32,000 nt of DNA from Sedimentisphaera cyanobacteriorum (lineage in GTDB: Bacteria > Planctomycetota > Phycisphaerae > Sedimentisphaerales > Sedimentisphaeraceae), in NCBI RefSeq assembly GCF_001997385.1, contig NZ_CP019633.1, positions 810,001-842,000 on the forward strand. Reading direction: 5' to 3'. Below, piece by piece: positions 8,209 to 29,671 of this stretch. A model generated the notes under the pieces. The model saw nothing but the letters and a program-made list of their open reading frames with translations. It was not told the DNA's origin and did not search any database. How positions within the stretch are numbered: position 1 is the stretch's first letter; each line of letters opens with the position of its first letter. Made by a program: the position numbers and the translations under genes.

Positions 8209-8221
8209 TAATTTGCCAGCT
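8194..8221. terminator. 7-bp inverted repeat (AGCTGGC-N14-GCCAGCT) spanning both stop codons of the convergent GH13 genes; possible bidirectional terminator lacking a U-tract
   Basis: Arms at 8194..8200 and 8215..8221, read directly from the sequence. Only 11 nt separate the two convergent stop codons, so there is no room for a separate terminator. Confidence 0.3.
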
Positions 8222-9767
8222 AATAGGCAGTTATCCTGAAGATTTCCGTTGAATGCGGCTTGGCTATGCCTGAAATTACTAATGAATCGGTCTTGATTTT
8301 GAGGCTTCTGCCCAAAAGCTTTTCGAAGCAAACTTTGCTTTTTCTGTTACGGCCAATAATCTTGATGCCGTTGACAGAGGATTTGTTTTCTGAAAAATTA
8401 TGCACCACTGCAATTATTTCATCTTCCCAGCGTCTTTGAAAAGCGAGGATGGGATCAGCATCTGAGTTCAGCAGCTTAAAATCGCCGCACCTGAGAGATT
8501 GACTTTGGTTTCTAAGCCTGATCAGCTTTTTATACCAGTTCAGCAGAGAATGCTCATCAGTCTCCATCTTCTCAACGTTGAATTGATTGAAGTTTTCATT
8601 AGGTTTTTTCCAAGGAAGCCCTTTTGTGAAGCCTGCATTTTGGCCTGCAGACCACTGCATCGGCTTGCGGATTTCCGGGTCCGGCTTTGTTCCGGTCATG
8701 CCAATCTCCTCGCCATAATAGATAAAGGGCGTGCCCGGGGAAGTGAGCAGAACAGCAGCGGCAAGCTTCATTTCGGCCATGTTCTTTGAAAGCTGAGAGA
8801 ATATCCTGTTTTGGTCGTGGTTTGAAAGAAACGGGGCAAAACTGAAATCAGAATAATCACTGCACGCCTTATCAATAATCTGAGAAATCTTATTAGGGGT
8901 TCGGTCTTTGATGTCTTCGACTAATGCCCATGAAAAAGGAAACTGAAAACCCATATCAACGCAGCCTTTAATCGTGTATTCACGGATAACATCAGCCTGA
9001 TCCCATATCTCACCTATTATGAATACATCCTCAGAGCAGCTCTTCCAATTCTTTCTCAATTGTTTCAGCACTCTAAATGTTCCGGCTGTATTTTGTATTT
9101 CGCCTTCATTTTCTACGAGATATTTAACAGCATCAAGCCGAAATCCATCAACGCCAACCTCTTCAATCCAAAACCGCCCTGCATTTTTAACCCTTCTTCG
9201 AACTTCGCTGCATCTGTAGTTTAAGTCCGGCATAACCCTGCTGAAAAAGCCGTAGTAGCTGCCTGATTGAGCTTTATGCCAATTTTCTCTGCCTTCAGGA
9301 TCATCTCGCCATACATAAAAGTTTCTGTAACTGTCCTGATGGGCTTTCAATGAATTTTTAAACCACGGATGTTTATTTGAGGTGTGGTTGGGCACAAAAT
9401 CAATTATCACCTTTATGCCGCGACTGTGAGCCTCCTCGAGAAATCTGCCAAAATCCAGCAGGTTCCCGTAATCTGGGTTTATGTCTCGGTAATCGGTAAC
9501 ATCATATCCATGATAACTCGGAGAGGGCATAATCGGCATAAGCCAGAGAGCATTAATTCCTAAGTCTGAAGTTGTTTCAGGGCTGCCGTCATTGAGGTAG
9601 TCGAGCTTTTGAATTAGCCCTTTTATATCCCCGATACCGTCGGCATCGGAATCATAAAAACTCCTTACAAAGACCTCATAGAAAACTGCACCTTCCCACC
9701 ATCTTTCTTCTGCCGATTCAACTGAGGCACAGCAGGTAAAAATAAGCAGCAAAACACAGATTCGCAT
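8220..9767 (-). CDS. Exported GH13 alpha-amylase-family enzyme (MPDLN-type, neopullulanase/GH13_36-like)
   Basis: The track start at 9782 is a TTG. The ATG at 9767 gives the signal peptide MRICVLLLIFTCCASVESA. Motifs: FYEVFVRSFYDSDADGIGD, DFVPNHTS, GVDGFRLDAVKY, IGEIWD, FLSNHDQNR and VMPDLN. It starts 2 nt after the upstream stop. Confidence 0.9.
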   Translation of the reverse strand: MRICVLLLIFTCCASVESAEERWWEGAVFYEVFVRSFYDSDADGIGDIKGLIQKLDYLNDGSPETTSDLGINALWLMPIMPSPSYHGYDVTDYRDINPDYGNLLDFGRFLEEAHSRGIKVIIDFVPNHTSNKHPWFKNSLKAHQDSYRNFYVWRDDPEGRENWHKAQSGSYYGFFSRVMPDLNYRCSEVRRRVKNAGRFWIEEVGVDGFRLDAVKYLVENEGEIQNTAGTFRVLKQLRKNWKSCSEDVFIIGEIWDQADVIREYTIKGCVDMGFQFPFSWALVEDIKDRTPNKISQIIDKACSDYSDFSFAPFLSNHDQNRIFSQLSKNMAEMKLAAAVLLTSPGTPFIYYGEEIGMTGTKPDPEIRKPMQWSAGQNAGFTKGLPWKKPNENFNQFNVEKMETDEHSLLNWYKKLIRLRNQSQSLRCGDFKLLNSDADPILAFQRRWEDEIIAVVHNFSENKSSVNGIKIIGRNRKSKVCFEKLLGRSLKIKTDSLVISGIAKPHSTEIFRITAY

Positions 9768-9769
9768 AA

Positions 9770-12250
9770 TTATTCCCCGCAAGGCAGAACTTTTAATTGC
9801 GAAATGTTGGTGTAATTGTAAGGCTCATTTCCTCCGCCTGTATTTTTGTACGGCGAGTAATGCTGAAAATAGCTCATATTGCGAGAATATTCATCCTCGC
9901 TTATCAGAACTTTATATGTCTTTTCTTTTTCGAGTTCGGCATATATGAAAGCGGAATCTCTGTAAATATCCCAGCCGGGCTTGCCGCTTCCGTGCTTTGC
10001 AGTATGGGGCATAATCAAGTATCCTTCGGTTTTACTGCTGTTTGAATCTTTCTCAGCAAGCTGAATATTTTTCACAGCACATGTGATTCCGGAATTAATT
10101 CCAAAAGCTCCGTTGGAATATTTTACGTATATTCGGTGAAGGCCGGAAAATTTGGGAGTAAACTCGCATTCAATCTCGTGCCCTGATTTGCCCCAGTTCT
10201 CAAAATGATGGTCGTTTACAAGGTATCCGCCTTTGTTTTGCATCTGCGAGGCTTCCACTTCAACCGAATAATCCGCAGCCGGAACATATTCACTTATGTG
10301 CGATGTATTTCCGCTATCATTAAAAACGCTGCACACTGCATAATAGTAAGGCGTGTATTTAAAGCCGGCAGAATTATTGTCCCTCCAGCTGTTTGCCCAG
10401 ATTCTATCTGCGACAAGCTCCCCGTTTCTGTAAACCCTGTAGTATATATTGGAACTTTCCTGTCCCTGCCACTTTAGATGAACAAGCCCGAATTCGCTTT
10501 CAGCAGATACATCCTTCGGCGTTTCCGGAGCAAATATAGTGCTTCCGGAAAGCTTTTCAACAGTATTTATTTTATCTCGGGAAGGTGAACCAGCGGAAAG
10601 ACGTATTTCAAAGCTGTTCACTTTTGAAAGCCTGTTTTCATTTATATGGAAAGAGTTAAGCTGATTCGAATTTAATTTGATGCTTTCCAGATTATAACGG
10701 CTGCTATGTGAGGGCTTTTCAGGAAGATTGAGGGTGATATTTATTATTTTTCCGTGGTATTCAAGCCCTTTGAGCTGAACCTTATTTGCGCCATTGAAGA
10801 GATTGCTGTGCATCCATCCTGTTACGTAGGGAGCGAGTTTTATGCTGTTCCAGCTCGGTTCGAAGCCGAAGATAACTTCCTGAACCATCCCAATATAACC
10901 TGCCACAGACCATAGCTGGCGTCTGGAATTGATAACTGGACCGCTGATTCCATTAGATTCTGCGTAAGCAAGGCCTGATGCAAAGTCGTAATTTTCCATA
11001 TTCGACAAATTTAGAGCCGCCTTTGAAACAAGGGAGTGAACTGCGCTGTTTACAGCTTTTGAGTTCTCAGCAGTCTTTGCTGCCTTAAGTCTGTAAGCTG
11101 AAACAAAAGGCCATATCCCGTGATTGTGATATATCGGCACGTTCTTCACCTGAGGCCAAACCACAGGTGTCCCGAATTTGCCTGTAGGGTAATTCGCTGC
11201 AAGTTTTTCGGCGGTTTTCTCATCTGCCACACCGCAAATAACTGCTAAAGACTCACCGAGAAGATCTCTGCGATTGGTTTTGACAGTCATTTTGTCTTCA
11301 ATAATAAGTGAGCTGTAATATCCATCATCTTCAAGGTAAAAATTTTCATTTATGCTTTTTTTGAGCGATTCAGACCACTCAGAATACTTATCCTGCAAGG
11401 GGGAGTTGTTTCTTTCCGCAAGTTTTGCGGCGAATTTAAGCATATTGTAATGCAGCACGTTTGTTGAGAGCGATTTGGATTGAGCTATGAGAGTAACATT
11501 GTCTCGCGTTCGGTATGGATAGCTCTGTTCCCGCCAGTCGAGAAAAGACTGCTCGCCGGAATACAGCCCGCAGGTGGTGTCGAATATAATTTTCCTGTCC
11601 TGCTCCACGGTGTTTTTTATTACCGGCCAGCACTCATCCAAGAAATCAGCCCTGAGAACACCGTGAAGATTTTTTGCAAGCTCTTTTGCCGCCAAGGCCC
11701 AAACCACCCTGTCTGTAGAAACAGGCCAGCTTCCGCCGGAGCCGGTATCTTGAATAATCTGGGGCTCAAAGCCCCCTTCTATCCCCTCTTTCAGCCGGCT
11801 TGTCTTGAACAAAAGTGAATTGATGCACCTTTCCTGATCAAAGCCGGCCAGCGAGAGCTCTATTGAATATGAAAGGTCTCTTGTCCAAACGTATTTCCAT
11901 TTCTCGCCAGTTTGAAAGTAAGGCCTTTGCAAACTGCTGCTGTAATTAAAACTATAGTCTGAAATGCTTGATACAGAATTTAATTCGGCCTCATAGTAAG
12001 CCATAGCAAAAAGCCCGTCAAAAAGCTTCGAGCCGGAATGCAGTGTTGGCCATGCTTTTTCTGTAATATTCAGCTTGCTGCTGTTGCTGTCTCTGAGCTC
12101 GAGTGTTGTTGACAAGATGAACTGCCTTTTTCCATCATTTTGCTGAACTTCTGCTGAGGCTTCTCCCCTGGTATCTTTATAGGAGTTTGCAGTATAATTC
12201 CCAGCATGGCAAAAAGACACAGCTAAAAGCAAAATAATAAATTTCTTCAT
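9770..12250 (-). CDS. Exported six-hairpin (alpha/alpha)6 glycoside hydrolase (GH15- or GDE-like) with a C-terminal Fn3-like domain and a CBM6/35-like domain
   Basis: Signal peptide: MKKFIILLLAVSFCHA. KYVWTRDLSYS resembles the Y.W.RD region of GH15. Other motifs: PQIIQDTG, FLDWREQSYP and QLWSVAGYIGMV. The C-terminus has an Fn3-like stretch (HLKWQG...YYRVYRNG) and a jelly-roll-like stretch (YSVEVEASQMQNKGGY...IYVKYSNG). The exact family is not resolved by eye. Confidence 0.6.
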   Translation of the reverse strand: MKKFIILLLAVSFCHAGNYTANSYKDTRGEASAEVQQNDGKRQFILSTTLELRDSNSSKLNITEKAWPTLHSGSKLFDGLFAMAYYEAELNSVSSISDYSFNYSSSLQRPYFQTGEKWKYVWTRDLSYSIELSLAGFDQERCINSLLFKTSRLKEGIEGGFEPQIIQDTGSGGSWPVSTDRVVWALAAKELAKNLHGVLRADFLDECWPVIKNTVEQDRKIIFDTTCGLYSGEQSFLDWREQSYPYRTRDNVTLIAQSKSLSTNVLHYNMLKFAAKLAERNNSPLQDKYSEWSESLKKSINENFYLEDDGYYSSLIIEDKMTVKTNRRDLLGESLAVICGVADEKTAEKLAANYPTGKFGTPVVWPQVKNVPIYHNHGIWPFVSAYRLKAAKTAENSKAVNSAVHSLVSKAALNLSNMENYDFASGLAYAESNGISGPVINSRRQLWSVAGYIGMVQEVIFGFEPSWNSIKLAPYVTGWMHSNLFNGANKVQLKGLEYHGKIINITLNLPEKPSHSSRYNLESIKLNSNQLNSFHINENRLSKVNSFEIRLSAGSPSRDKINTVEKLSGSTIFAPETPKDVSAESEFGLVHLKWQGQESSNIYYRVYRNGELVADRIWANSWRDNNSAGFKYTPYYYAVCSVFNDSGNTSHISEYVPAADYSVEVEASQMQNKGGYLVNDHHFENWGKSGHEIECEFTPKFSGLHRIYVKYSNGAFGINSGITCAVKNIQLAEKDSNSSKTEGYLIMPHTAKHGSGKPGWDIYRDSAFIYAELEKEKTYKVLISEDEYSRNMSYFQHYSPYKNTGGGNEPYNYTNISQLKVLPCGE

Positions 12251-12267
12251 AATTCCATGGATCCTTT

Positions 12268-13257
12268 TTAAACTAAGCAGAACGTATCTCTGGCAAGGGC
12301 AGCGCTTCCTATAATCCCGGAATCCTCTCTGAGATTTGCAAAACAGAACTCTATTTTCACATCAATATCTTTGCGGATAAATTTATTGAAATAAAAACTG
12401 ATTCTGTCAAGCAGTGCCTGTCCAGCGGCAATCATTCCGCCTGAGAAAACAATCTTATCGGGGTTTGAGTATGAAAAGATATTCACGCAGAGAAGCCCTA
12501 TAACTTTAGCCGTGAGTTCAGTGATTTCATAAGCAAATCTGTCGCCTTGAGACGCATGCTCGTAAACCTCCTTACAGCTAACATCGCCCCTTTCGATAAA
12601 TATATCCTGAAGTGAAGAGGCCGCTCCCTCAGCAAGCATTTCGTTTGCCCTTTTGGCAGTTGCCGAGGCTGAGGCATAAGTCTCAGCGCAGCCCCTCTGC
12701 GTGCAGCCGCACTCTCTGCCTTCGGGATAGATTATGATATGACCGAGCTCAGATGCGCTGTTACCGGCGCCGTGAATAAGCTTGCCGTCTGTTATTACTG
12801 CCCCGCCGATACCTGTACCGAGAGTTAAAAGCACCATATCATCCACGTCCTCAGCTGCGCCGAGGACATACTCCCCCCAGCCCGCCACATTCGCATCATT
12901 TTCAAGAATGCAGGGAGCGTTTATCTTCTCTGAAACATATCTGCTTATCGAAAAACCCTTATAGACCGGCAGATTGGGCGAGGTAATTATCATGCCTTTT
13001 TTTGTATCCAAAACCCCCGGACATCCTATTCCAGCGGCTTTTATGTCTTCCATCCTTAACCCTGCCTGACTTAATAAGCTGCCAAGTGCATTGACCACTG
13101 AATTCATTGTGGCCTTAGGCCGGTCGTTATCGGTGGGGATGGAGATCTTTGAGAGCATCTCCATCTTCTCGCTGAAGCAGCCGATCTTTACGAACGTCCC
13201 GCCCAAGTCTATTCCAACAAAGAGGTCTTTAGTGTCGGTATTTATGTTTTTCTGCAT
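12268..13257 (-). CDS. glk: ROK-family glucokinase
   Basis: The track start at 13272 is a TTG; the ATG at 13257 gives MQKNINTD.... Motifs: GIDLGGTFVKIG, ENDANVAGWGE, LTLGTGIGGAVI and the zinc motif ELGHIIIYPEGRECGCTQRGCAETY. No signal peptide. Confidence 0.85.
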   Translation of the reverse strand: MQKNINTDTKDLFVGIDLGGTFVKIGCFSEKMEMLSKISIPTDNDRPKATMNSVVNALGSLLSQAGLRMEDIKAAGIGCPGVLDTKKGMIITSPNLPVYKGFSISRYVSEKINAPCILENDANVAGWGEYVLGAAEDVDDMVLLTLGTGIGGAVITDGKLIHGAGNSASELGHIIIYPEGRECGCTQRGCAETYASASATAKRANEMLAEGAASSLQDIFIERGDVSCKEVYEHASQGDRFAYEITELTAKVIGLLCVNIFSYSNPDKIVFSGGMIAAGQALLDRISFYFNKFIRKDIDVKIEFCFANLREDSGIIGSAALARDTFCLV

Positions 13258-13289
13258 AACTTCTTTGCGCAATTAATCGTTTAGATGTA

Positions 13290-14123
13290 TTATCTTTTCA
13301 CTAATGATAATCTGTATGTATCCTGCCAGCGAACTTCACTAACATGGCCATCTACGAAGACAGCATTCGCCGTGCCGTCTCCTCTATCTTGTACGCTTAA
13401 TTCGGTTTTGTGGAAGCTTCCGAAAAGATCATCGAACTGCCCGTCGTAATCCTTGGGGAGGTTGGTCTCAACAAAATTGTCCCTAAATCTGGCACATAGT
13501 GCATTGTCGTTCAGAGCTGCGGTATTTTTCCGTGCCCCGTTTTCCTCCCTAAGCCACATATTCTCTTCTGAGAAAAAGAAAGTATTGCCCGCCCTTTTTA
13601 CTGCATCATATTTCAGCGGCTGACCGTCTGTATAGTTATTGGAATTAGGCGAGAGAAAAGCATTCATACTGTAGCTGTACTGAGGTTCAATTTCAATTTC
13701 AGAATTATGATATGGGTGTTCTGTCCCGTATCTTTTGGCGAAAGATTCAAACATCGGACAGAGATTAATCTCTGTGTTGTCGCCTAAATACGGAAAAAGA
13801 GAACCCTGAAGATGCTGATAATCATCGTTTACAGGATTTCTCTGGGCATCGTGCCACTGGCAGTTGATATCTCCGCCTGCAAGATCGGGCTTGAATATAC
13901 AGTTCCAAGCATTGGGAAATTCGTAATCATTCTCATTCACGTACATATTGCCTGAAATGCCGTACTGCTTTAAGTTATTCTTGCATAAGATATTTTTCGC
14001 TGCTTTTCTGGCTTTGTTGAGCGACGGGATCAAAACAGCCATTAGAATAGCAATAATTGATATAACCACCAGCAGCTCTATAAGGGTGAAGGCTTTTTGG
14101 GTTTTATTATTGTGATTATCCAT
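13290..14123 (-). CDS. Prepilin-type N-terminal cleavage/methylation domain protein of the DUF1559 (H-X9-DG) pseudopilin-like family
   Basis: The track start at 14141 is a TTG. The ATG at 14123 has AAAGGA 6 nt upstream. N-terminus: [35 protein letters not shown]-terminus: [13 protein letters not shown]. Confidence 0.85.
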
Positions 14124-14152
14124 GAGAAATCCTTTCTGCAATAATACAGTGT

Positions 14153-16975: not shown

Positions 16976-17061
16976 TCGAATCCTCTTAAATTTAATGTTT
17001 AGTTAAAATTTCCCCATTCTTTCGCCCTGCTCATAATTCAGGGCGTAAGGATAAGAAATAT

Positions 17062-17091
17062 GCATTCCCGGCCCAAGTGAGCCGGGAATGC
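17062..17091 (-). terminator. Perfect 11-bp hairpin after the Ig/LamG gene (intra-array terminator or attenuator)
   Basis: On the minus strand: GCATTCCCGGC-tcacttgg-GCCGGGAATGC followed by ATATTTCTTAT. It begins 10 nt after the stop at 17101. A second hairpin, CGCCCTG-N9-CAGGGCG, lies at 17023..17045. Confidence 0.45.
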
Positions 17092-17100
17092 TATTATATT

Positions 17101-19239
17101 TTATTCTGTTGGATAAACGTTGTTATCAATGAGCCACTGGGCTGCAAATTCATCAAAATCAGAAAGGCTTACTTTGCAGTCGCCGTCGAAATCCATCTGC
17201 GGATCGGACTGGCAGACCGGCTCACCAGTCATATCAGCCATCATCTGCGCTATATCGCTTTCTGAGATTGGATAGTTGTATATAGACACCTCATCGAGTG
17301 TGCTGGCCATAAAGCTGAATTCCTGCGGAACTATTACGCCGCCTTCAAGCTCAAATCTTGCCCCCATGCTCACTGGTGAAGATGTTTCTGCGATAGAATC
17401 GCCCGGGAGACTGTCTTCAGATGCGAGTGTGCCGTCGATATACAGCTTCTTCTCGCCGTCATCAAATGATGCTGCAATCCAGTGCCACTGACCGTCAAAG
17501 ATGTTTCTCTCTGAAGGCGTGCCGTCTTCCTCGCCGCCTGTGCCTCGGGTTGTGAAGCAGATCTTACTGCCCTGATCGGCAGTGTTATACTTCCTTACCT
17601 GCCAGCCTTCGCTGCTTTCGCCGTTTCTTGCTACAAACGGGTTCCAGTCTGATGGTGTTGTAGATTTTGCCCAGAAGGTAACTGTCATATTGTAGTTGCA
17701 CTGATCGAAGTAATCCACTTCCTCTATATCGGTATAAAGGGCATTGTCCTCTCCGTTGAAAGTGATCGCTTCGCCGCTCCAGCCTGAAACAAAGTTCGGA
17801 TCTCCGAAAAGATAACTGCTTGGGCTTTCTGCTACTGCGCTTTGATAATCTCCGCCGTCGAAAGACCAGTGAGCGATTTTCTTCTGGATATAAAGCATAA
17901 TAGGATCGCTTGAGACCTCTGTACCGGAATCGTTGGCTACTTTGCAAACGTATTCAGTTTCATCGCCTGCCTGAACATTTGTAACTTCGAGCACAGAAGA
18001 TGTCTCGCCGGAGATTTCCTGAAGCTCGCCTGCTGCATCAGCTTTGTACCACTGATAAGTTTCCGGAGAAATAGAGCCGACTTCAACTTCCATTGATACT
18101 GTCTCGCCTATATCAGAAAGCACGTATTCAGTTTGCGATAGAATCTCAGGAATAGATTTCTTCGTTTGGAACTGCCATGTGAACCCTGTAGTTGTTTCTG
18201 CGCCTCGAACAGCATCAACGCGCCAGTTGTATGTTCTGTCCATATCGAGCGGCTCTGCCGGCGTGTAAGAATAAGACCCGGAAACCTCATCCCAGCCGCC
18301 TGCGGGCTTTGCGGTGGTATCAATAAGGAAAAGATTAGGATCGCCCTCTACAGTATTCATATAGAGCTGGTATTCATCAACAGTTTGATCAACATCAGTT
18401 ACATCGGGTTCTGCAAGAGCAAAATCCCAAGTTAGATCGGTATCAGCAAGTACGCCTGTCTCCCCGTTAGACGGCAGGGGATTGTGCGCTCTTGAAAGCT
18501 TTTGTTCAAAGGTGAATGTTTCCTCGAATGTTGTTGCAACAACAACATCATCCCAGTCTGCTGTTTCCATGCACGCTATCCTAATACCGGTAATCCAGTC
18601 TCCTTCTCTTGCTGAGGCATCCATAAACGCATCTGCTGTGTTGTCTGACGGGCTGTTGTAATAGTCCTCAGCATCGGGATTTACCCATACGCCTACATTC
18701 TCAGTTTCCATATCCCATACGCCAATAATGCGCACTGTTTCGTTGAGCTCAGCTTCAACGTCTGTCAAAGCCTGACCGCCGCCGTCTCCTTCTACGCTCA
18801 ATCCCCAGTATTTTACTCCTGCCTGCTGATAAGGCAGCCCGTATTTAACTTTTTCGCCTCCAGTGTCGGCCATGAAGCTGATTCCGCCCCAGTCGCTGTA
18901 GCCGGTGAGGGTAATAGTTGCTCCGGCGTATATAATTCCGCCGGCCTGCTGAGCGCCTGCCCAGATATCACCGCTGGACCAGTCTCTGTAGGCTCCGCCG
19001 CCGCTTCCGCCGAAAGCTGGGCTGCTGTACACGCCGCCGTTAATTACATCGCCTGTCAAAGTACCCCAGTCGGTTTTCCAAGTTGATTTTGTACCAGTTT
19101 GGGTTCTGTCCCAGCCGATACCTCCGTTCTGCCCTACCAGATTAGACCCGTCCGGATAATCGAAGCTTTCATACCCAACCAGCTCAGCGAAAGAAACGCT
19201 CGCCAAAATGATTAAAATAAATGCTGCTAACTGTCTCAT
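17101..19239 (-). CDS. Secreted non-catalytic multidomain protein: N-terminal jelly-roll module, Fn3-like domain, Ig (I-set-like) domain, LamG/concanavalin-like domain and C-terminal dockerin-like tag
   Basis: The track start at 19269 is a TTG. The ATG at 19239 (MRQLAAFILIILASVSFA) has GGAG 9 nt upstream. Ig-like: YQWYKADAAG...LEVTNVQAGDETEYVCKVANDSG. LamG-like: IAHWSFDGG...MTVTFWAK...GQWHWIAASFDDGEKKLYIDG. C-terminus: DFDGDCKVSLSDFDEFAAQWL. Confidence 0.75.
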   Translation of the reverse strand: MRQLAAFILIILASVSFAELVGYESFDYPDGSNLVGQNGGIGWDRTQTGTKSTWKTDWGTLTGDVINGGVYSSPAFGGSGGGAYRDWSSGDIWAGAQQAGGIIYAGATITLTGYSDWGGISFMADTGGEKVKYGLPYQQAGVKYWGLSVEGDGGGQALTDVEAELNETVRIIGVWDMETENVGVWVNPDAEDYYNSPSDNTADAFMDASAREGDWITGIRIACMETADWDDVVVATTFEETFTFEQKLSRAHNPLPSNGETGVLADTDLTWDFALAEPDVTDVDQTVDEYQLYMNTVEGDPNLFLIDTTAKPAGGWDEVSGSYSYTPAEPLDMDRTYNWRVDAVRGAETTTGFTWQFQTKKSIPEILSQTEYVLSDIGETVSMEVEVGSISPETYQWYKADAAGELQEISGETSSVLEVTNVQAGDETEYVCKVANDSGTEVSSDPIMLYIQKKIAHWSFDGGDYQSAVAESPSSYLFGDPNFVSGWSGEAITFNGEDNALYTDIEEVDYFDQCNYNMTVTFWAKSTTPSDWNPFVARNGESSEGWQVRKYNTADQGSKICFTTRGTGGEEDGTPSERNIFDGQWHWIAASFDDGEKKLYIDGTLASEDSLPGDSIAETSSPVSMGARFELEGGVIVPQEFSFMASTLDEVSIYNYPISESDIAQMMADMTGEPVCQSDPQMDFDGDCKVSLSDFDEFAAQWLIDNNVYPTE

Positions 19240-19318
19240 TTTTAAATTCTCCATTTGCCATGACAACAACCTTGCTTTACCACCCGCATGGCATCAGGGG
19301 CAAAGCTTAAATAATATG

Positions 19319-21661
19319 TTAATTACTTTCCGTTTCTATGTAATCAATGTTTATATCTCCGAAATCATCAGGGGCGTAGTAAATGCAAACCTGATTAATT
19401 CCTTTTTCAAGCTCTGCAGAAACCGAGCTAACTGCCCAGCTGTCCCAGTTTGGAAGAATTGGCAAATCAATCTTGCCGGCTGAATCGCCATTGATAATTA
19501 CAGTCCGCCTTGAGCTTTCATTAGCGGATGCATAATTAAGTTTGATATTGTAACTGCCGCTATGGACTGCTTTTACGTAAAAAGATACGCTATCGTAAAC
19601 TCCGGTAAACTGATCTACAAAACCTTCGCCTGAGAAGCCCGGGTGGTCGTTATCAACAGCTGTGTTAAATTTAATCGCGTCTTCCGCCTCATACCTGTAT
19701 CCCTGCGGGGTATTAAAATCCCTTTCAACCAAGATCATATCCCAGTATTTCAGCTCTTTCACAGTGAATGAGATAAAATCTCCAGTGCTGTCCCTGCCTT
19801 CGGTGAAACTCAGAGGATAAAAGCTGCCTCCGTTTCTATCCGGCGAGCCGCAGAAAACCTTTTTTGCCTCGGCGTTAGGCCCGAGCCTTAGCTTAACCGT
19901 GAAATCATTGACTGTATTTGGCGAAGCCGCCTGATTCCTCCATAAACTGTCATTCCCGAGAAGATTGACAAGATGAAAGATTTCGAAATCCTCATTCGCC
20001 CTGTTGAGAAACCATACCGTATTAGAAGAGGCATCGCCGGAAAGGCTTATCTCAGGTATATCTATCCACTGAAGCCCGCTGTCGCCTAATCTAAGCTCCG
20101 GGGAGAAAAGCAGCTTTTCGTTTGCGGTGATAAAGCTGTAATAGTCTTTGAGCTTATCTTTCAGCGAATCGGTCATAAGTTTTTCTCTGGAAGGAAAAAA
20201 TTCGTTTGCGAGCATAAAATCTCCGTCGCCAAGCTCAAGATGGAAAGCCCCGCATGCAAAAAATGCAGCATCGGCAAGAAGAACTGAATCTTCATCAAAA
20301 TAGCCGCCGGTATCTTCACCTTTATTCATATATGCAGGAAGCACTACTGCCTTCCCTCCGGATTCTTGTTTTGCGTAGCGAATAAAATCCCTTACCCCTC
20401 TGTAGGTATCATTAGCCCAAAGCTCGCTGTAAATCACATCCGTACTGCTTTGTTCTACAATCTCAGAGGATGCCCAGCTGCCTGCGCCTCCGTCAACAAT
20501 GTTAAAAATCACAGCGTCCCTGCCCTGCATATACGGGTACTCAGTTTCGAGCCAGTCCAGATGCATCTTGCTTCTGTTTACTATAGACCGCAAGCCGTCT
20601 GCAAGATTTACTTCTTCCCCCCAATAATCAAAGTAGCTGCCGCTGCCTATATTCCCGAGCTGGTCGATATGCAGTCCGTCCCACTGCAAAGCCTGCATTG
20701 CATCGGTAAACTCGCCGCAGAGATGGTTCTGCCAATCAAGATTGAACGGATTAAATACCCAGATTTTTGTTCCGGCATCATGGTAATACTGGTTTTGATG
20801 AGATTGATCAGAATAGAGTCCCCATTCAGGGCTCACCCCGCTTATCTGCTGATAGTCATCGAGTCCGCAGTAGGCCTGAAAATACGGCATAGCTGCCATA
20901 TTTCTATCGTGCGCCTCACTAATAGAATGAGCAAGAACAGAATAGGATATTTCTGCTCCTCGCCAGTCCTGCCACGGGTCTTTTATGCTTCCATCCTGAT
21001 TTCGCTGTATTACATTCTCATGCCTCCACATCCAGTCGTAATACTGAAGGGAGTTTATGTGATAATCTCTCGAGAGTGAATTCATAATTTCGATATTTCT
21101 TGAAGCCTTCTGTCCTTCGTAAAACTCTGTAACATACCCGTATCGCGGATACATCTTCCAGTCGCTGGAAACATCGATTGCAGATGTTTCGCTATCTGCA
21201 TTGTTCAAAAGAGCTTCAATCTGATAGCCCTGAAAATCATCAGGCGGGAGCTGAAATGAGAACGTTTTATTTGTATTGCCGAAAGAGGAAATCGAGATCG
21301 AATCAGAAGCTGAATAAACGGCGCCGGTGTTTTTAAGGACACGCAGTCTGAGAGTACCGCTGAAAGCATTTTCTGAAGGGTTTGCGCATTTGACTGTTAT
21401 ACAGCAGTTTGCATTCGGGCTGTACCTAGAACCGTCCGTATAAACCTTTTCTATAAAAGCATCAGACTGGTTCAAACCGGAAAGCCACTGAAAAGCCAAA
21501 TCTGAGATATCGAGGCTTTTATATCTGTCCTGCTGCTTGTTTGCAACAGCTGCGAAATCAGAAAGATCAACTTTGCCGTCGAGGTTGAAATCTGTTCTCA
21601 AACCCGCAAAGGACATAGTGCATATCAAACCGGCAAGGAATATTTTTATAAGATGTTTCAT
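19319..21661 (-). CDS. Exported GH66-like enzyme (dextranase / cycloisomaltooligosaccharide glucanotransferase family) with an N-terminal dockerin-like tag and a C-terminal CBM35/CBM6-like domain
   Basis: A signal peptide is followed by DFNLDGKVDLSDFAAVA. YPRYGYVTEF, INSLQYYDWMW, WDGLHIDQLG and DVIYSELW resemble, from my memory of streptococcal and Paenibacillus GH66 sequences, the FPRY, nucleophile (..D..G) and acid/base (..YNELW) regions. C-terminus: YEAEDAIKFNTAVDNDHPGFSGEGFVDQF...YNIKLNYA, which is CBM35/6-like. Confidence 0.65.
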   Translation of the reverse strand: MKHLIKIFLAGLICTMSFAGLRTDFNLDGKVDLSDFAAVANKQQDRYKSLDISDLAFQWLSGLNQSDAFIEKVYTDGSRYSPNANCCITVKCANPSENAFSGTLRLRVLKNTGAVYSASDSISISSFGNTNKTFSFQLPPDDFQGYQIEALLNNADSETSAIDVSSDWKMYPRYGYVTEFYEGQKASRNIEIMNSLSRDYHINSLQYYDWMWRHENVIQRNQDGSIKDPWQDWRGAEISYSVLAHSISEAHDRNMAAMPYFQAYCGLDDYQQISGVSPEWGLYSDQSHQNQYYHDAGTKIWVFNPFNLDWQNHLCGEFTDAMQALQWDGLHIDQLGNIGSGSYFDYWGEEVNLADGLRSIVNRSKMHLDWLETEYPYMQGRDAVIFNIVDGGAGSWASSEIVEQSSTDVIYSELWANDTYRGVRDFIRYAKQESGGKAVVLPAYMNKGEDTGGYFDEDSVLLADAAFFACGAFHLELGDGDFMLANEFFPSREKLMTDSLKDKLKDYYSFITANEKLLFSPELRLGDSGLQWIDIPEISLSGDASSNTVWFLNRANEDFEIFHLVNLLGNDSLWRNQAASPNTVNDFTVKLRLGPNAEAKKVFCGSPDRNGGSFYPLSFTEGRDSTGDFISFTVKELKYWDMILVERDFNTPQGYRYEAEDAIKFNTAVDNDHPGFSGEGFVDQFTGVYDSVSFYVKAVHSGSYNIKLNYASANESSRRTVIINGDSAGKIDLPILPNWDSWAVSSVSAELEKGINQVCIYYAPDDFGDINIDYIETESN

Positions 21662-21680
21662 TCGATTATTTTAGCCTAAA

Positions 21681-23363
21681 TTATCTGTCTGCATCAATCT
21701 TCAGCACCGGATTTCCCCAGAAGCTCCAGTCGAATCCCCAGCTGTCGTCTGCTTCGGTAACAGCAAGGGTTAGGAATCTGTTGTCATCTGCAAGATCAAT
21801 ATTTACATCTTCCAGAAGAGAATCGCTGGACAGCAGTTTCTGAAATCTAACTTCTCCATCAACAATAATATGCATTACAGCTCTAGAGGGAGATTTGGAG
21901 TATTTATTTACAGTGTCAGAAATGCCCGCCTGTGCAATGAAAGATTCAATTTTCATATCGCTGAGAGATTCTCTAATCGAGTTTAGGTCGAAAGTCATCC
22001 CTGTATTTGAATGCATTGTGATAGCGGGGTTGTCTTTTGTCCCGTAAGGTGTACCGTTTTTGCGCAGTCTGTGCCTTGGTACATCCGCTCCCTTATGGAA
22101 TGCGCCGTTGAATATGTATCCCCAGTATGACCCGCTGGTTTCAGGGATATCCTTGCTTAGAAGTCCCGTGGATGCAATCTGAACGCCCTGGCCTGCATTA
22201 TCAGCGCAGAATACTCCATCTATATATTCGTTCTTTGAAACCGATACATACGCATTCTGCCCGTTGCGTTCTCCTTCATAAGAGAGCCTTCCAAGCATAT
22301 CTCCGTCTGAGATTTCAATTCCGGTTTTCTCTGTTCCGCTGCCAAAGCCGTTTCCGCCTCCCACTATATCCGCAAGACAAAGCCCGCCGCCCCGCCAAAG
22401 CATACCGGAGCTTGAATCAATATCCCTTGTGAAGGCTGCAGGTTCGAATCCTGCCTTGCTTACCTGTCCGCTCAAACGCTCAACTTTTCCGGCCTGACCT
22501 ACAGACAGAAATAATTCGCTTAACTTTTCATTTATAGAGCTGAGGGCAGCTTTCCCCTCATAAACCTGAACTTTGGAATCACCGTATTTGTTCACTTGTA
22601 CACCAAACTCTGTTCCCAAATCTATAATCTCAGAGGAAGGAGTTTGAACAGTAAAGCCGACTGCCCTTTCGGGCACATAAGCACAAACTTTCCCGTAATC
22701 AAGTTCGAGAGTTTCCTGCGATGTGCACCTGAAAACTGCTGGAGACTCCACGACAATCTGCGAACCGCCTTCGAAAAGCAGCTCTAAATGACCTTTTTCG
22801 AGCTTGAAGTAATCATCTTTATCGTAAAAAACACCCCCCTCAGAAGGTTTTCTATACTCTTGCGACCATACAGCTTTGTATGAATCATTGACGAATGCGG
22901 TCTTGGTTTTAGTGAAGAAGGTCTCCAGCTTCACTGCCGCAAGAAGGAATAAAAGCGCAGCAGCAGAAGCAACTGCTACAAATACAGTTGGCTTGCTTAC
23001 TTTCCTTTTTGCAGGCTCTGAGGGGTATTCATAAACCGCCGGCGATTTTTGCTTTGTTTTAGGCTGATTCTTATGAGGGACAATCGGAGCATTTTTTATC
23101 TCTTCCTGAAGCTTTGAAACAGCGTCATCATCTAAAGCTGCCGGCATAAACTCATTTACAATTTCCTCATCATCGTATTCCCGAACCCTTGATTCAATGC
23201 ATACATAATCGCTTACAAGCTGCCAGTATTGCTTAACCGCAGCTGGATTGTCTTCGGTGAGCTCTCTGAGCTGCTCTTCAAGTTCCTGCTGCCGGGAGTC
23301 GTTGTTTTCGCCCTCGAGCATACGCAGTATATATTCTGTCAGTTTATGTTCGTGATTATTCAT
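21681..23363 (-). CDS. FecR-type transmembrane anti-sigma factor with a C-terminal NPCBM-like putative carbohydrate-binding domain
   Basis: The N-terminal helical region is followed by a single TM segment (VFVAVASAAALLFLLAAV). FecR-like: GGSQIVVESPAVF...FTVQTPSSEIIDLGTEFGVQV...VQVYEGKA. C-terminus: AITMHSNTGMTFDL...FIAQAGISD...HIIVDGEVRF...LTLAVTEADDSWGFDWSFWGNPVL. It starts 10 nt after the sigma gene. Confidence 0.8.
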   Translation of the reverse strand: MNNHEHKLTEYILRMLEGENNDSRQQELEEQLRELTEDNPAAVKQYWQLVSDYVCIESRVREYDDEEIVNEFMPAALDDDAVSKLQEEIKNAPIVPHKNQPKTKQKSPAVYEYPSEPAKRKVSKPTVFVAVASAAALLFLLAAVKLETFFTKTKTAFVNDSYKAVWSQEYRKPSEGGVFYDKDDYFKLEKGHLELLFEGGSQIVVESPAVFRCTSQETLELDYGKVCAYVPERAVGFTVQTPSSEIIDLGTEFGVQVNKYGDSKVQVYEGKAALSSINEKLSELFLSVGQAGKVERLSGQVSKAGFEPAAFTRDIDSSSGMLWRGGGLCLADIVGGGNGFGSGTEKTGIEISDGDMLGRLSYEGERNGQNAYVSVSKNEYIDGVFCADNAGQGVQIASTGLLSKDIPETSGSYWGYIFNGAFHKGADVPRHRLRKNGTPYGTKDNPAITMHSNTGMTFDLNSIRESLSDMKIESFIAQAGISDTVNKYSKSPSRAVMHIIVDGEVRFQKLLSSDSLLEDVNIDLADDNRFLTLAVTEADDSWGFDWSFWGNPVLKIDADR

Positions 23364-23373
23364 TTCCCTATCT

Positions 23374-23892
23374 TTATTCCTGTCTTAAAAGTTCTCTTTT
23401 AATACAGCTTCTCAGCAGTGCTACAATCCTTGCTAATGATTTGTAAATCCCGTTGCCGGATCTGCCGGTAATTTCTGAAATTTTCTTTACGCTGAATTCC
23501 TTCTTAAATCTCATAAGAAGAAGCTTCCTGTCGGAGGTATTAAGCTTTTTTATACACTTTTGAAGCAGTTCAATCCTTTCTGCCTGATTATCGTCGCTGT
23601 ATTGGGCGAGCTGAACCAAGGATTCGTAAAAGTTTTCGCCGAATACGGGGGCCCTTTTTCTGCTTCGCATATGCTCTTTCACTTTATTCTTGGCAATCCC
23701 AAGAGCCCAGCCAGCGAAATCATAAGAAGGGTCGTATTTATCAAAACTCTCCCAGAGTATCAGGCTTACTTCCTGCATAAGCTCGTCTGCGTCATTGCGG
23801 TTGTGCACAGATGCGAGCAGATAAGTATATAGCCTTAGCTGAACTCTGGAATAATGCTTAATAAAATCCGAATTTTCTTTTTTAATTTTCAT
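23374..23892 (-). CDS. ECF-type RNA polymerase sigma-70 family factor (Planctomycete/Verrucomicrobial subgroup-like)
   Basis: Region 2: DADELMQEVSLILWESFDKYDPSYDFAGWALGIAKNKV. Region 4: LNTSDRKLLLMRFKKEFSVKKISEITGRSGNGIYKSLARI. The track start at 23916 is a GTG; the first ATG is at 23892. The start is uncertain. Confidence 0.85.
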   Translation of the reverse strand: MKIKKENSDFIKHYSRVQLRLYTYLLASVHNRNDADELMQEVSLILWESFDKYDPSYDFAGWALGIAKNKVKEHMRSRKRAPVFGENFYESLVQLAQYSDDNQAERIELLQKCIKKLNTSDRKLLLMRFKKEFSVKKISEITGRSGNGIYKSLARIVALLRSCIKRELLRQE

Positions 23893-23940
23893 ATAAAATC
23901 CGCTCGAATTCTTCACCTATACTTGTATTTGCAGTTAAAA

Positions 23941-23949
23941 ATTGTAACA
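23941..23949 (-). promoter_or_regulatory. Candidate extended -10 element (TGTTACAAT) upstream of the ECF sigma gene
   Basis: The minus strand reads cTGTTACAATttttaact. The element lies 49 nt upstream of the ATG at 23892 and downstream of the terminator at 24020..24047. No convincing -35 element. Confidence 0.3.
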
Positions 23950-24019
23950 GAAAAATAAAAATTAAAGAAGATAATCATAAAATGGGTGACAAATCGGCTC
24001 TGCTGCCTTGTTTGAACTA

Positions 24020-24047
24020 AAAAAGGCGAAACCGTGAAGCTTCGCCT
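24020..24047 (-). terminator. Rho-independent terminator of the PEP-CTERM gene
   Basis: On the minus strand: GGCGAAGC-ttcac-GGTTTCGCC followed by TTTTTT, about 28 nt after the stop at 24075. Confidence 0.7.
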
Positions 24048-24074
24048 TGTGATCTCTGATACAATATCCTGCTG

Positions 24075-27463: not shown

Positions 27464-28363
27464 TTAAGTATGAGCCTGCTTCTTCAGCCTGAAATACAAA
27501 CACCCGAGTCCCAGCGTTAATATTGAAGCAGGTTCGGGGATGGCCATTATGTCATTTATCTGGCCGCTGTATTGTGAGAGGTCTGAATAAAAGCTCAAAT
27601 TGCCGTAAACGCTTGTCCTGTCCGGCTGGCCGTCGTAAGTGGCAATAGCATGAGCAATTCCAGCAAGCTCCCACTCGCCATTTTTGACGAAAAGGCCGGA
27701 GCCCGAATCATGATCTACTGTTATTCCATAGTCCGGCATATCTTCGAAAGATGTGGCAAAACCCTCTATGCCATTGAAATCAGCGTCTGATTGATAAACT
27801 TCCTCAAATGCCCATCTCTTATCTCTATCAGCCTCCCAATAATAACCTTGTCTTTGGGTATCTGACGGATTCCCCTCTGTTGACCAAACTCCAGTTTGCC
27901 TGTCGATATACCAAGTAGTTTCCGTTGAAGAGGTTTGGCCGTCGCCTGTTCCGATATGAGTTGCCTGAGTTCCAGCAGAAGGAACGCTTGAGGCTATAGG
28001 CGTTGGAGAAAGCCCGCTTAAATTGCCTGCTGAGGTGTCAACTCTGAACATATAGAGGTCTATTTTAGAAGTCTTCTCGAGATTATCCAGCTGAACTCCG
28101 TATTCCTCGCCTGCCATCTTGCTGTAGGTGGCATCCCCGTCAACAGTAAAATATGTCTTGCTGCTTAAGTGGTTGGCCGTTATCACCCAGCCATTCCCCA
28201 GATAAACGCCTGACCCGTTTGTCCCTACACTACCTGAGCGAGCCCAGCCCGGGTCGTCCGAGGGAGCTGTAAGATGGCCTGAATCGCCGCCTGATATAAC
28301 AATTCCAAATGATACATTTGCAAATAAAAGTAAAGCAGCCGTAAAAAATGTTAATCTCTTCAT
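27464..28363 (-). CDS. Secreted trypsin-like (S1-like) serine peptidase domain protein with a PEP-CTERM anchor
   Basis: Signal peptide: MKRLTFFTAALLLFANVSFG. GWVITANHL is a His-motif context, KIDLYMFRV a candidate Asp context, and VDHDSGSGLF a GDSGG-like Ser motif. C-terminus: IPEPASILTLGLGCLYFRLKKQ. GAGGAA RBS. Confidence 0.7.
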   Translation of the reverse strand: MKRLTFFTAALLLFANVSFGIVISGGDSGHLTAPSDDPGWARSGSVGTNGSGVYLGNGWVITANHLSSKTYFTVDGDATYSKMAGEEYGVQLDNLEKTSKIDLYMFRVDTSAGNLSGLSPTPIASSVPSAGTQATHIGTGDGQTSSTETTWYIDRQTGVWSTEGNPSDTQRQGYYWEADRDKRWAFEEVYQSDADFNGIEGFATSFEDMPDYGITVDHDSGSGLFVKNGEWELAGIAHAIATYDGQPDRTSVYGNLSFYSDLSQYSGQINDIMAIPEPASILTLGLGCLYFRLKKQAHT

Positions 28364-29650: not shown

Positions 29651-29671
29651 AAAATTCCCTTTCATAATAGT

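Follow-up and report, generated by a model that had tools for sequence, protein, structure and literature searches.

A SusC/SusD-independent alpha-glucan cluster, probably centred on alpha-1,6-glucan, in the planctomycete Sedimentisphaera cyanobacteriorum

Introduction

How does a bacterium sense, bind and take up dextran when the locus that encodes its dextran-degrading enzymes has no recognisable transporter? The question is raised by a 32,000-nucleotide stretch of Sedimentisphaera cyanobacteriorum (Planctomycetota, Phycisphaerae; contig NZ_CP019633.1, positions 810,001 to 842,000; hereafter the window, in whose own numbering coordinates are given). An earlier note on this DNA had described an array of exported glycoside hydrolases (GHs) headed by an extracytoplasmic function (ECF) sigma factor and its anti-sigma partner, and had taken it for a SusC/SusD-less polysaccharide utilisation locus (PUL) in the style of the Planctomycetes-Verrucomicrobia-Chlamydiae (PVC) bacteria; gene content and conservation agree with that description. 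From the sequence comparisons reported here, we consider it likely that the segment 6169-24803 is a SusC/SusD-independent alpha-glucan cluster centred on alpha-1,6-glucan (dextran, isomalto-oligosaccharides) and built on a cassette that recurs in Sedimentisphaerales.

Planctomycetes accumulate dextran of 10-40 kDa in the periplasm in an energy-dependent manner and bind it to pili-like fibres, the genes being unidentified (PMC5394234; PMC12673574). In the literature searched, no published description was found of the S. cyanobacteriorum locus or of GH66 in PVC phyla.

Results

Gene content of the cluster

Domains were called with Pfam and NCBIfam models on the open reading frames (ORFs) of the window, and export was judged with our own N-terminal hydrophobicity heuristic, not SignalP. 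Nine consecutive ORFs occupy the minus strand from 8220 to 23916, at the coordinates claimed earlier, in the order ECF sigma, FecR-type anti-sigma, GH66 with carbohydrate-binding module (CBM) 35, Ig/LamG protein, GH31, prepilin-like protein, ROK kinase, six-hairpin GH and GH13 (Table 1). Taking the longest ORFs, neighbouring genes are separated by 10, 19, 49, 125, 11, 17 and 17 nt, and the last two, six-hairpin and GH13, overlap by 13 nt; an internal ATG as the GH13 start would instead leave 2 nt between them. This agrees with the spacing of 2 to 125 nt given before. The regulatory pair at the head of the array, the GH31, ROK and GH13 genes and the convergent secreted CBM48-GH13 were all recovered where they had been placed. 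Signal-peptide-like N-termini were found on every GH and on the Ig/LamG and PEP-CTERM proteins, and on neither the ROK protein nor the sigma factor; the hydrolases appear to be exported and the ROK kinase cytoplasmic, in line with the earlier note. The earlier note had overlooked that the anti-sigma carries a CBM51-like domain, that a PEP-CTERM protein is encoded at 24075-24803 and that the CBM48-GH13 belongs to the conserved core. From the conservation of the gene set in S. salicampi, Anaerohalosphaera lusitana and a metagenome-assembled genome (MAG), the functional unit was set at 6169-24803, from the CBM48-GH13 through the PEP-CTERM gene.

No ORF with three or more transmembrane segments occurs in the 32-kb window, and window ORFs of at least 100 aa gave no match to transporter, phosphotransferase-system (PTS) permease, TonB_dep_Rec, Plug or SusD families, which bears out the reported lack of SusC/SusD, ATP-binding cassette (ABC), major facilitator superfamily (MFS) or PTS components. 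The adjacent SusC/SusD pair that defines a Bacteroidota PUL is missing from this locus.

Conservation in other genomes

The whole array is syntenic, in the same order, in Sedimentisphaera salicampi (L001 in our numbering of related loci; 72-90% identity, Table 1), and in this pair of species the conservation of the non-enzymatic genes matches that of the enzymes (prepilin 90%, Ig/LamG 87%, GHs 72-89%). In A. lusitana (L007), which belongs to another family, the order is sigma, FecR/NPCBM anti-sigma, prepilin, Ig/LamG, PEP-CTERM, CBM48-GH13, GH66-CBM35 and six-hairpin, the locus having been seen up to the six-hairpin gene. Synteny in S. salicampi together with the same gene set, reordered, in A. 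lusitana argues that the array is not due to chance. The CBM48-GH13 is in addition 63% identical to its counterpart in L008, and an Anaerohalosphaeraceae MAG combines GH66, CBM48-GH13, a dockerin-like protein, GH13, six-hairpin and GH31 genes.

SusC/SusD were found at neither the S. salicampi nor the A. lusitana locus, and no sugar transporter was found in the Sedimentisphaerales loci seen, L008 having only an AcrB-type pump. Beside related loci of other lineages, importers are common: members of the sodium:solute symporter family (SSF) in L020, L022 and L052, MFS proteins in L029, L031, L073 and L076, ABC permeases in L046, L048, L070 and L086, and a monosaccharide-type ABC permease adjoining L010. 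The expectation that orthologous loci lack a canonical transporter agrees with the Sedimentisphaerales loci seen and is partly contradicted beyond, where related six-hairpin/GH31 loci often carry SSF, MFS or ABC importers. The presence of such ordinary importers makes glucose import through a transporter encoded elsewhere in the genome the likeliest route.

Several local features of these loci were also recorded. S. salicampi has an extra 893-aa GH57 between GH13 and CBM48-GH13 (L001 14057-16738); it is absent from the window, where the stop codons of these two genes are 11 nt apart. Some 5-8 kb upstream of the A. lusitana locus are found a ROK gene and a gene of the PFK family. PFK-family genes stand about 5-10 kb from the alpha-glucan locus in both S. 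cyanobacteriorum (906-2231, plus strand) and A. lusitana (L007 5075-6277), their products being 25% identical and their proximity possibly a coincidence. In L007 a tRNA-Thr gene (8978-9049) lies about 400 nt upstream of sigma and a phage-type integrase fragment (1-141) 9 kb upstream, which may hint that the A. lusitana cassette sits at an integration hotspot; no tRNA gene was found within the window.

The sigma/anti-sigma pair and its cassette

The sigma factor scores 124.0 bits against TIGR02989 (Rhodopirellula/Verrucomicrobium ECF family; cut-off 124.55) and has the attributes of an ECF factor, namely regions 2 and 4 only and a co-directional anti-sigma gene 10 nt away. The anti-sigma consists of a cytoplasmic helical N-terminal domain, a single transmembrane helix at about 124-150 (by the hydrophobicity heuristic and the AlphaFold2 (AF2) model, pLDDT 84), a FecR/PupR-like part at about 154-300 (PF04773, 1.1e-6, residues 191-272) and a conserved module of about 260 aa (about 300-560) with a CBM51/NPCBM-like domain at its end (PF08305, 1.7e-8, 35 bits, above cut-off, residues 448-554). 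In Foldseek searches the FecR part superposes on BDI_1681, a Bacteroides anti-sigma, and on the PupR CCSSD (fold matches 4M0N and 6OVK), and the C-terminal domain matches CBM51 structures (7JRL, E = 2.5e-7; 2VMI, TMt 0.69).

Residues 301-560 were searched against 1.84 billion representative proteins. The module was found in 1422 representative clusters (1022 at E <= 1e-10) and is almost confined to the FecR anti-sigma architecture; the proteins that bear it are nearly all 540-610 aa long with the module at the same position, which argues for a large coherent anti-sigma family and against a one-off fusion. The literature searched yielded no published account of this FecR-CBM51 family or of a PVC anti-sigma with a CBM.

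Genomes carry several paralogs of the FecR-CBM51 anti-sigma. In six further paralogous sigma/anti-sigma contexts, a PEP-CTERM or an Ig_3 plus LamG protein is encoded within one or two genes, and most of them also contain GHs, in varying sets (GH31-PA14; GH31 with NAGLU; GH97 with GH2). A TonB-dependent transducer was found neither in the window nor in these six loci; a distant gene is possible. A cassette of sigma, FecR-CBM51 anti-sigma, Ig/LamG stalk, PEP-CTERM head, GHs and often a prepilin therefore recurs in Sedimentisphaerales, with GHs that are interchangeable between cassettes. The modularity is apparent in L093 (1-17698), where two cassettes stand in tandem, the first with anti-sigma, Ig/LamG, PEP-CTERM and a FAD_oxidored-Ig-LamG protein, the second with sigma, anti-sigma, Ig/LamG, GH97 (with its own NPCBM), GH2 and prepilin.

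GH66 and the question of substrate

The GH66 assignment of 19319-21661, on which the earlier reading depended, was confirmed overwhelmingly by an uninterrupted alignment over profile positions 1-546 of 546 (PF13199, 9.6e-132). In the PDB, the closest chains are those of cycloisomaltooligosaccharide glucanotransferases (CITases; best 3WNK, 3.6e-149, with 5X7G also close), to which the core is about 50% identical, ahead of dextranases at 1e-86. D209 (in YYDWMWRH) and E413 (in YSELW) align with identical residues of 3WNK in the motifs YDWMWRH and YSE(I/L)W; we take them to be the counterparts of the catalytic Asp145 and Glu342 of mature CITase. The CBM35 that interrupts the CITase catalytic domain is missing: query residues 451 and 452 are contiguous where 3WNK has residues 402-526, and the inserted CBM35 of 3WNK aligns instead with the C-terminal CBM35 of the query (653-775). 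With this defining insertion absent, identity as a CITase was rejected, and we read the protein as a putative endo-alpha-1,6-glucanase in which some cyclising activity is possible.

The GH31 (also matching PF13802, PF21365 and PF17137) is closest to alpha-glucosidase II (5DJW, 1e-237). The GH13 of the array is closest to AmyA of Halothermothrix orenii (1WZA, 4e-110), followed by SusG and oligo-1,6-glucosidases, and the CBM48-GH13, which also has an Alpha-amylase_C domain, to the branching enzyme GlgB (7e-50) and TreZ. The main substrate could alternatively be a mixed alpha-1,4/alpha-1,6 glucan (pullulan, glycogen, cyanobacterial storage glucan), or the GH66 could after all be a CITase in a cyclic dextrin pathway as in Bacillus and Paenibacillus. 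We hold this to be rather unlikely. The CITases as best GH66 matches speak for it, as do the two GH13 enzymes, one with CBM48, the GH57 added in S. salicampi, and the CBM48-GH13 being the best conserved enzyme between the families (70%); against it stand the missing CBM35 insertion, the unbroken Pfam alignment and the fusion of the six-hairpin family to GH66 elsewhere, which points to alpha-1,6-glucan as the common theme. We also know of no characterised GH66 enzyme that acts on anything other than consecutive alpha-1,6 linkages.

The ROK protein falls below the TIGR00744 cut-off (243.4 against 260.35 bits), has no helix-turn-helix match and is, by its sequence, probably a glucokinase. Orthologs of the GH31 (about 50% identity) directly adjoin six-hairpin homologs in 8 PVC loci. 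Residues 1-250 of the GH31 form an extra N-terminal domain without Pfam match, kept only in the Sedimentisphaerales orthologs (L001, L008, L009, L038), that may be a binding or anchoring module.

An uncharacterised six-hairpin family

The 826-aa protein at 9770-12250, 100% identical to L21SP3_00624 of S. cyanobacteriorum, has only weak Pfam matches (GDE_C, 9e-7; Bac_rhamnosid6H, 8e-6). Its AF2 model (pLDDT 87.5, pTM 0.91) consists of an N-terminal beta-sandwich, an (alpha/alpha)6 barrel, an FN3-like domain and a C-terminal CBM-like beta-sandwich, and Foldseek aligns it, with probability 1.0, TM-scores of about 0.4 and 11-15% identity, to GH94 phosphorylases and to GH78, GH37, GH100, GH15 and GH63 enzymes. 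The six-hairpin fold proposed earlier was thus recovered; the label 'GH15-type' was not. No Glyco_hydro_15 match was obtained at E <= 0.01, sequence and profile searches of the PDB returned no GH15 chain, the family profile reached only E = 5e-4 against PDB sequences, and glucodextranase (1UG9) ranks 40th by fold (TM 0.31). On these results, assignments to GH15, GH65 and GH133 were rejected. Judged by its model, the protein is a six-hairpin glycosidase of an uncharacterised, unassigned family without a close solved relative.

This family has more than 7000 homologs. Its 581 confirmed genomic relatives are from Sedimentisphaerales, Verrucomicrobiota, Kiritimatiellota, Victivallales and Myxococcota, and within 10 kb of the best 80 six-hairpin loci GH13 was found in 21, GH31 in 14, CBM48-GH13 in 14 and GH66 in 7. 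In Verrucomicrobiota loci, GH66 and six-hairpin genes are adjacent, as in L033 (Akkermansiaceae), or fused: several Verrucomicrobiota-type metagenome contigs encode GH66::six-hairpin proteins of 1327-1349 aa (10001-13984 in L002, L003 and L004; 1675-5676 in L025; 8468-12517 in L030). Upstream of the fusions are a second GH66-CBM6, a prepilin, a He_PIG protein and a PA14-bearing histidine kinase with its response regulator. There is good genomic evidence that the family may act on dextran-derived or related alpha-glucosides; its export makes a hydrolase more probable than a phosphorylase.

Surface proteins with exchangeable heads

The Ig/LamG protein has a variable head of about 250 aa, FN3-like, Ig_3 and LamG domains and a single C-terminal dockerin-like repeat (DFDGDCKVSLSDFDEFAAQWL). 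Its counterparts in the paralogous sigma/anti-sigma loci share the C-terminal 460 aa or so (FN3-like, Ig, LamG) and a terminal Cys-containing EF-hand-like repeat, D-C-x-V-[DN]-[LI]-x-D-[FL]..[FM]A..WL, and their heads of about 220-250 aa are mutually unrelated between loci. The PEP-CTERM protein of the window matches the PEP-CTERM protein of the A. lusitana locus (6.5e-62, 48.5% identity over 98% of its length) and also the head of the A. lusitana Ig/LamG protein (2e-47), which suggests that heads are exchanged between the two protein types. No Pfam or PDB relative of the PEP-CTERM head was found. Locus-specific binding proteins would be expected to show such a pattern, in which the head varies and either of two anchors stays constant, and the PEP-CTERM protein is by these comparisons a candidate surface glycan-binding protein.

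Of the earlier description as an Ig/LamG/dockerin protein, the Ig_3 and Laminin_G_3 domains were borne out; the dockerin part holds at the level of an EF-hand-like D-x-[DN]-x-D...D motif, as the C-terminus gave no Dockerin_1 match. Sub-threshold Dockerin_1 matches were obtained for the GH66 N-terminus (E = 0.0075, 16.9 bits) and the CBM48-GH13 C-terminus (E = 0.016, 15.9 bits; cut-off 22.9), and no cohesin match was found in the window ORFs.

The prepilin-like protein and uptake

The prepilin-like protein begins with a class III signal (PF07963, ...KA|FTLIELLVV, Glu at +5) that would be cleaved before F18, the residue aligned with residue 1 of mature pilin. This motif stands; the DUF1559 label given earlier does not, since PF07596 matches residues 43-84 only (E = 0.029, 14.8 bits against a cut-off of 23.3). 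A few homologs of about 42% identity carry PF07596, so that the relation to DUF1559 is at superfamily level only. The family is large (6224 matches, with homologs named H-X9-DG proteins in the sources) and conserves four Cys, several His and the end ...FH..x..DG..N.VFVDGHV (H-X9/10-DG...VFVDGHV). On DUF1559-type prepilins, the literature searched mentions the domain and gives no function.

Prepilins of 270-315 aa occur inside GH66/six-hairpin loci of Sedimentisphaera, A. lusitana and the Verrucomicrobia locus type, and another in the GH31/six-hairpin locus L010. In the Verrucomicrobia the conserved order is histidine kinase and response regulator, He_PIG protein, prepilin, GH66 and six-hairpin, with prepilins mutually 61-68% identical. 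A dextran-specific ortholog group was rejected as an explanation: the A. lusitana prepilin (43%) is no closer than others, the nearest prepilins outside Sedimentisphaera (44-48% identity) stand in pectin, beta-glucan or housekeeping contexts, and the Verrucomicrobia prepilins form a separate group. The association with GH66/six-hairpin loci is recurrent, neither universal nor orthologous.

The earlier note had proposed that the non-enzymatic genes supply capture and uptake. In its strongest form the locus would be self-sufficient, a prepilin fibre decorated by dockerin-like and PEP-CTERM proteins capturing dextran for 'selfish' periplasmic uptake, with only glucose crossing the inner membrane. 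The periplasmic uptake of 10-40 kDa dextran by planctomycetes and its binding to fibres (PMC5394234; PMC12673574) keep this idea alive as a minority hypothesis, and it is in line with the export of all GHs, the presence of a prepilin in GH66/six-hairpin loci of three of five lineages (Sedimentisphaera, A. lusitana and a Verrucomicrobia subdivision-3-type, to which L010 may be added) and the 90% identity of the prepilin between the two Sedimentisphaera species. Fibre-mediated uptake, however, was observed in Planctomycetia only, not in Phycisphaerae; the prepilin family is huge, with nearest homologs beside genes for other purposes; the prepilins of Sedimentisphaerales and Verrucomicrobia are non-orthologous, with 33% identity over the N-terminal part only; none was found in the seen stretch of L008, L009, L033 and L038; and secretin, ATPase and platform genes were not found in the window. 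A role of the non-enzymatic genes in capture and uptake is speculative, and the self-sufficient locus quite unlikely.

Transcription units

The two best minus-strand terminator-like hairpins are both intergenic. The one between the PEP-CTERM and sigma genes implies a separate promoter for sigma within the AT-rich 100 nt that follow it. By eye, a TGTCA-type element was seen in the AT-rich regions upstream of sigma in four sequences, the window (23917-24022), L005, L006 and L007 (TTTGTCACCC, GGTGTCAAATCTGACA, CATGTCAGAA); it may be an ECF promoter or operator.

The other hairpin, the strongest of the region, may be a terminator or attenuator that divides the array into sigma/anti-sigma/GH66/IgLamG and GH31/prepilin/ROK/six-hairpin/GH13. 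It lies in the only large gap, GH31 and six-hairpin genes co-occur without GH66 or the sigma pair in many PVC loci, and the A. lusitana ROK gene is not part of the cassette, being located about 7 kb upstream of its sigma pair. The sigma pair might then control itself, GH66 and Ig/LamG, leaving GH31 to GH13 as a separate alpha-glucoside operon. Order and spacing are, however, the same in S. salicampi, the two halves are functionally complementary, the T-run after the hairpin is weak (ATATTTCTTA), and no sigma-70-type promoter stands out, the promoter scan giving 32 sites against 34 expected from shuffled sequence. On balance two separate regulatory units seem somewhat unlikely.

Neighbouring genes

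The remaining genes of the window are of housekeeping type (purE, PFK, folP, a DegT-type aminotransferase, an amidohydrolase) or encode other secreted proteins (GH43, trypsin-like), the neighbourhood being generally rich in secreted and surface proteins. A 517-aa cytoplasmic protein shows the highest conservation of any between the two Sedimentisphaera species (96% identity); in both, its gene diverges from that of the CBM48-GH13, with 336 nt of AT-rich spacer between the two. The protein has no Pfam match and a sub-threshold HPr-like domain (TIGR01003, 1.6e-5, residues 335-380, 'GFHVRPS'), and may be a regulatory link to sugar metabolism; as a hidden transporter it was rejected, being cytoplasmic with that domain.

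Table 1. Features of the cluster and its surroundings, with amino acid identity to the S. salicampi (L001) and A. lusitana (L007) counterparts.
Feature	Coordinates	Strand	Evidence	Identity to S. salicampi	Identity to A. lusitana
PEP-CTERM 'head' protein, 242 aa	24075..24803	-	TIGR02595 17.4 bits (cut-off 16); Pfam 20.5 (cut-off 20.7)		48.5%
Terminator-like hairpin and T-run between PEP-CTERM and sigma genes	24023..24048	-	11 bp stem, then TTTTAG		
ECF sigma, 180 aa	23374..23916	-	Sigma70_r2 1.8e-13; r4_2 4.8e-6		
Single-pass anti-sigma, 560 aa	21681..23363	-	FecR and NPCBM (Pfam); AF2 model		
Exported GH66, C-terminal CBM35, N-terminal dockerin-like repeat	19319..21661	-	GH66 9.6e-132; CBM35 4e-12	78%	53%
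Exported Ig/LamG 'stalk' protein, 722 aa	17101..19269	-	Ig_3 and Laminin_G_3 (Pfam)	87%	39%
Terminator-like hairpin in 125-nt gap upstream of GH31	17062..17091	-	13 bp, 9 GC; strongest of region		
Exported GH31 alpha-glucosidase, 940 aa	14153..16975	-	PF01055 8.8e-122	83%	
Prepilin-type (pseudopilin-like) protein, 283 aa	13290..14141	-	N_methyl 1.1e-8	90%	43%
Cytoplasmic ROK-family sugar kinase	12268..13272	-	PF00480 2.4e-64	88%	
Exported six-hairpin glycosidase (predicted), 826 aa	9770..12250	-	AF2 fold; weak GDE_C, Bac_rhamnosid6H	76%	51%
Exported GH13, alpha-amylase type, 520 aa	8220..9782	-	PF00128 3.7e-99	72%	
Convergent exported CBM48-GH13, 679 aa, two C-terminal dockerin-like repeats	6169..8208	+	Pfam (PF00128 5e-23; CBM48; Alpha-amylase_C)	89%	70%
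Trypsin-like protein, weak PEP-CTERM-like tail	27464..28363	-			
GH43-like secreted protein	28496..29665	-			
Secreted protein, 173 aa, sub-threshold dockerin/EF-hand repeat	31153..31674	-			
Cytoplasmic protein, 517 aa	4279..5832	-	Sub-threshold HPr-like domain	96%	

Discussion

On the reading preferred here, an alpha-glucan cluster centred on alpha-1,6-glucan, the membrane anti-sigma would hold the ECF sigma inactive until a periplasmic signal frees it, probably by regulated proteolysis as in FecR. That signal would most likely be an alpha-glucan fragment held by the CBM51-like domain, or else a partner in ligand-loaded form such as the Ig/LamG or PEP-CTERM protein, and freed sigma would turn on the array, possibly as two transcripts divided at the hairpin 17062-17091. 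GH66-CBM35 and CBM48-GH13, with their dockerin-like repeats, would together with the Ig/LamG and PEP-CTERM proteins bind and cut the polymer at the cell surface or outer layer, and GH31, the six-hairpin GH and GH13 would complete its breakdown to glucose in the periplasm. Glucose would enter by an ordinary inner-membrane transporter encoded elsewhere and be phosphorylated by the ROK kinase. The prepilin-like protein could be a subunit of a type II secretion system or of a pilus-like fibre, for enzyme export or substrate capture.

Several points weigh against this reading. The GH13, the CBM48-GH13 and, in S. salicampi, the GH57 are also suggestive of alpha-1,4/alpha-1,6 glucans (pullulan or glycogen, for example), the strain name RPul suggests isolation or enrichment on pullulan, and the nearest relatives of the GH66 core are cyclising CITases. 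When CBM51-like domains are compared with that of the window, the anti-sigma of the A. lusitana dextran locus reaches 77 bits and paralogs from non-dextran loci reach 72 and 85 bits; these scores bear no signature of dextran-specific sensing and leave substrate-specific conservation of the domain unsupported. Prepilin paralogs occur in housekeeping contexts too, the hairpin 17062-17091 may uncouple the five distal genes from the sigma pair, and the placement of each protein in the periplasm or at the surface is a guess.

Set beside characterised systems, the cluster combines familiar enzymes with unfamiliar accessory parts. Characterised Bacteroidota dextran PULs contain GH66 and GH31, with or without GH97 and GH65, and no GH15 or GH13 (PMC10316084), so that the enzyme logic which the earlier note had ascribed to them is shared as far as GH66 and GH31 and no further. 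Like FjDexUL of Flavobacterium johnsoniae and the SusR2/BT3086-BT3091 locus of Bacteroides thetaiotaomicron, the cluster encodes exported GH66 and GH31, which in those loci are an endo-dextranase and an alpha-glucosidase or dextranase (PMC10316084; PMC3878776). It shares with such PULs a dedicated regulator and, as proposed here, surface binding proteins and glucose release in the periplasm; the candidate binding proteins are, however, PEP-CTERM, Ig/LamG and dockerin-like proteins here and lipoproteins there. Some of these PULs have a six-hairpin GH65 kojibiose hydrolase, whereas the six-hairpin enzyme of the window is not a GH65. The cluster further differs in having no SusC/SusD, SusE/F, SusR or GH97, in being headed by an ECF/anti-sigma pair, and in having GH13, CBM48-GH13 and a ROK kinase.

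The CITase clusters of Bacillus circulans T-3040 and Paenibacillus sp. 598K, by comparison, offer the closest GH66 core (3WNK, 5X7G), and they too combine it with this type of CBM35 and with GH31 and GH13 enzymes. The cluster described here differs from them in the missing CBM35 insertion, the absence of an ABC importer from the window and a GH31 of the alpha-glucosidase-II type (5DJW) rather than their 6-alpha-glucosyltransferase type (5X7O, only 6e-26).

As in FecIR of E. coli, PupIR of Pseudomonas and the pairs of Bacteroides PULs, an ECF sigma and a single-pass FecR anti-sigma head a nutrient locus; unlike in those systems, no TonB-dependent transducer is nearby and the anti-sigma has an additional CBM51-ended module of about 260 aa. 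In Clostridium thermocellum, which uses dockerins, the anti-sigma factors of the sigmaI/RsgI system carry extracytoplasmic CBMs and occur as many paralogs beside different polysaccharide genes. The working principle may be analogous, a membrane anti-sigma ending in a CBM-like domain, but the families are unrelated: the sigma factor is ECF and not sigmaI, the anti-sigma FecR and not the RsgI N-domain, the host diderm, and binding by the CBM51-like domain predicted; the Pfam scan found no RsgI match on window proteins. The prepilin-like protein resembles PVC H-X9-DG/DUF1559 proteins and type II secretion pseudopilins in its class III signal, N-methylation motif and pilin-aligned N-terminal helix, and departs from known pseudopilins in a globular part without solved relative in the PDB search and a PF07596 match below threshold.

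The enzyme logic of the locus is ordinary; of more interest are the family of sensor-type anti-sigma factors, the modular head/stalk proteins, the prepilin linked to the locus and the unassigned six-hairpin family. Taken jointly, these could form a modular glycan-acquisition system that replaces SusC/SusD in Sedimentisphaerales and perhaps in other PVC bacteria, a proposal we advance tentatively and regard as rather doubtful in its entirety. In such a system the anti-sigma may sense glycan, directly or via a partner, without a TonB-dependent transducer; locus-specific heads, presented by PEP-CTERM anchors or by Ig/LamG stalks that end in a dockerin-like tail, may bind it at the surface; and the prepilin may build or tune a fibre or secretion piston for polymer capture or enzyme export.

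In sediments, mats and digesters, much of the degradation of complex glycans falls to PVC bacteria, and how they sense, bind and import such polymers without SusC/SusD is poorly understood. For a strain in culture and a cheap, well-defined substrate, the locus provides a small number of candidates that are open to test: a CBM-bearing anti-sigma family of more than 1000 clusters, modular head/stalk proteins, a locus-linked prepilin and a widespread six-hairpin family, genetically tied to GH66 and GH31, that could plausibly yield new activities on dextran or isomalto-oligosaccharides. Should the modular system proposed above prove true, it would provide a first genetic handle on the fibre-associated capture and periplasmic uptake of dextran by planctomycetes, and the 826-aa enzyme would found a new alpha-glucan-active GH family.

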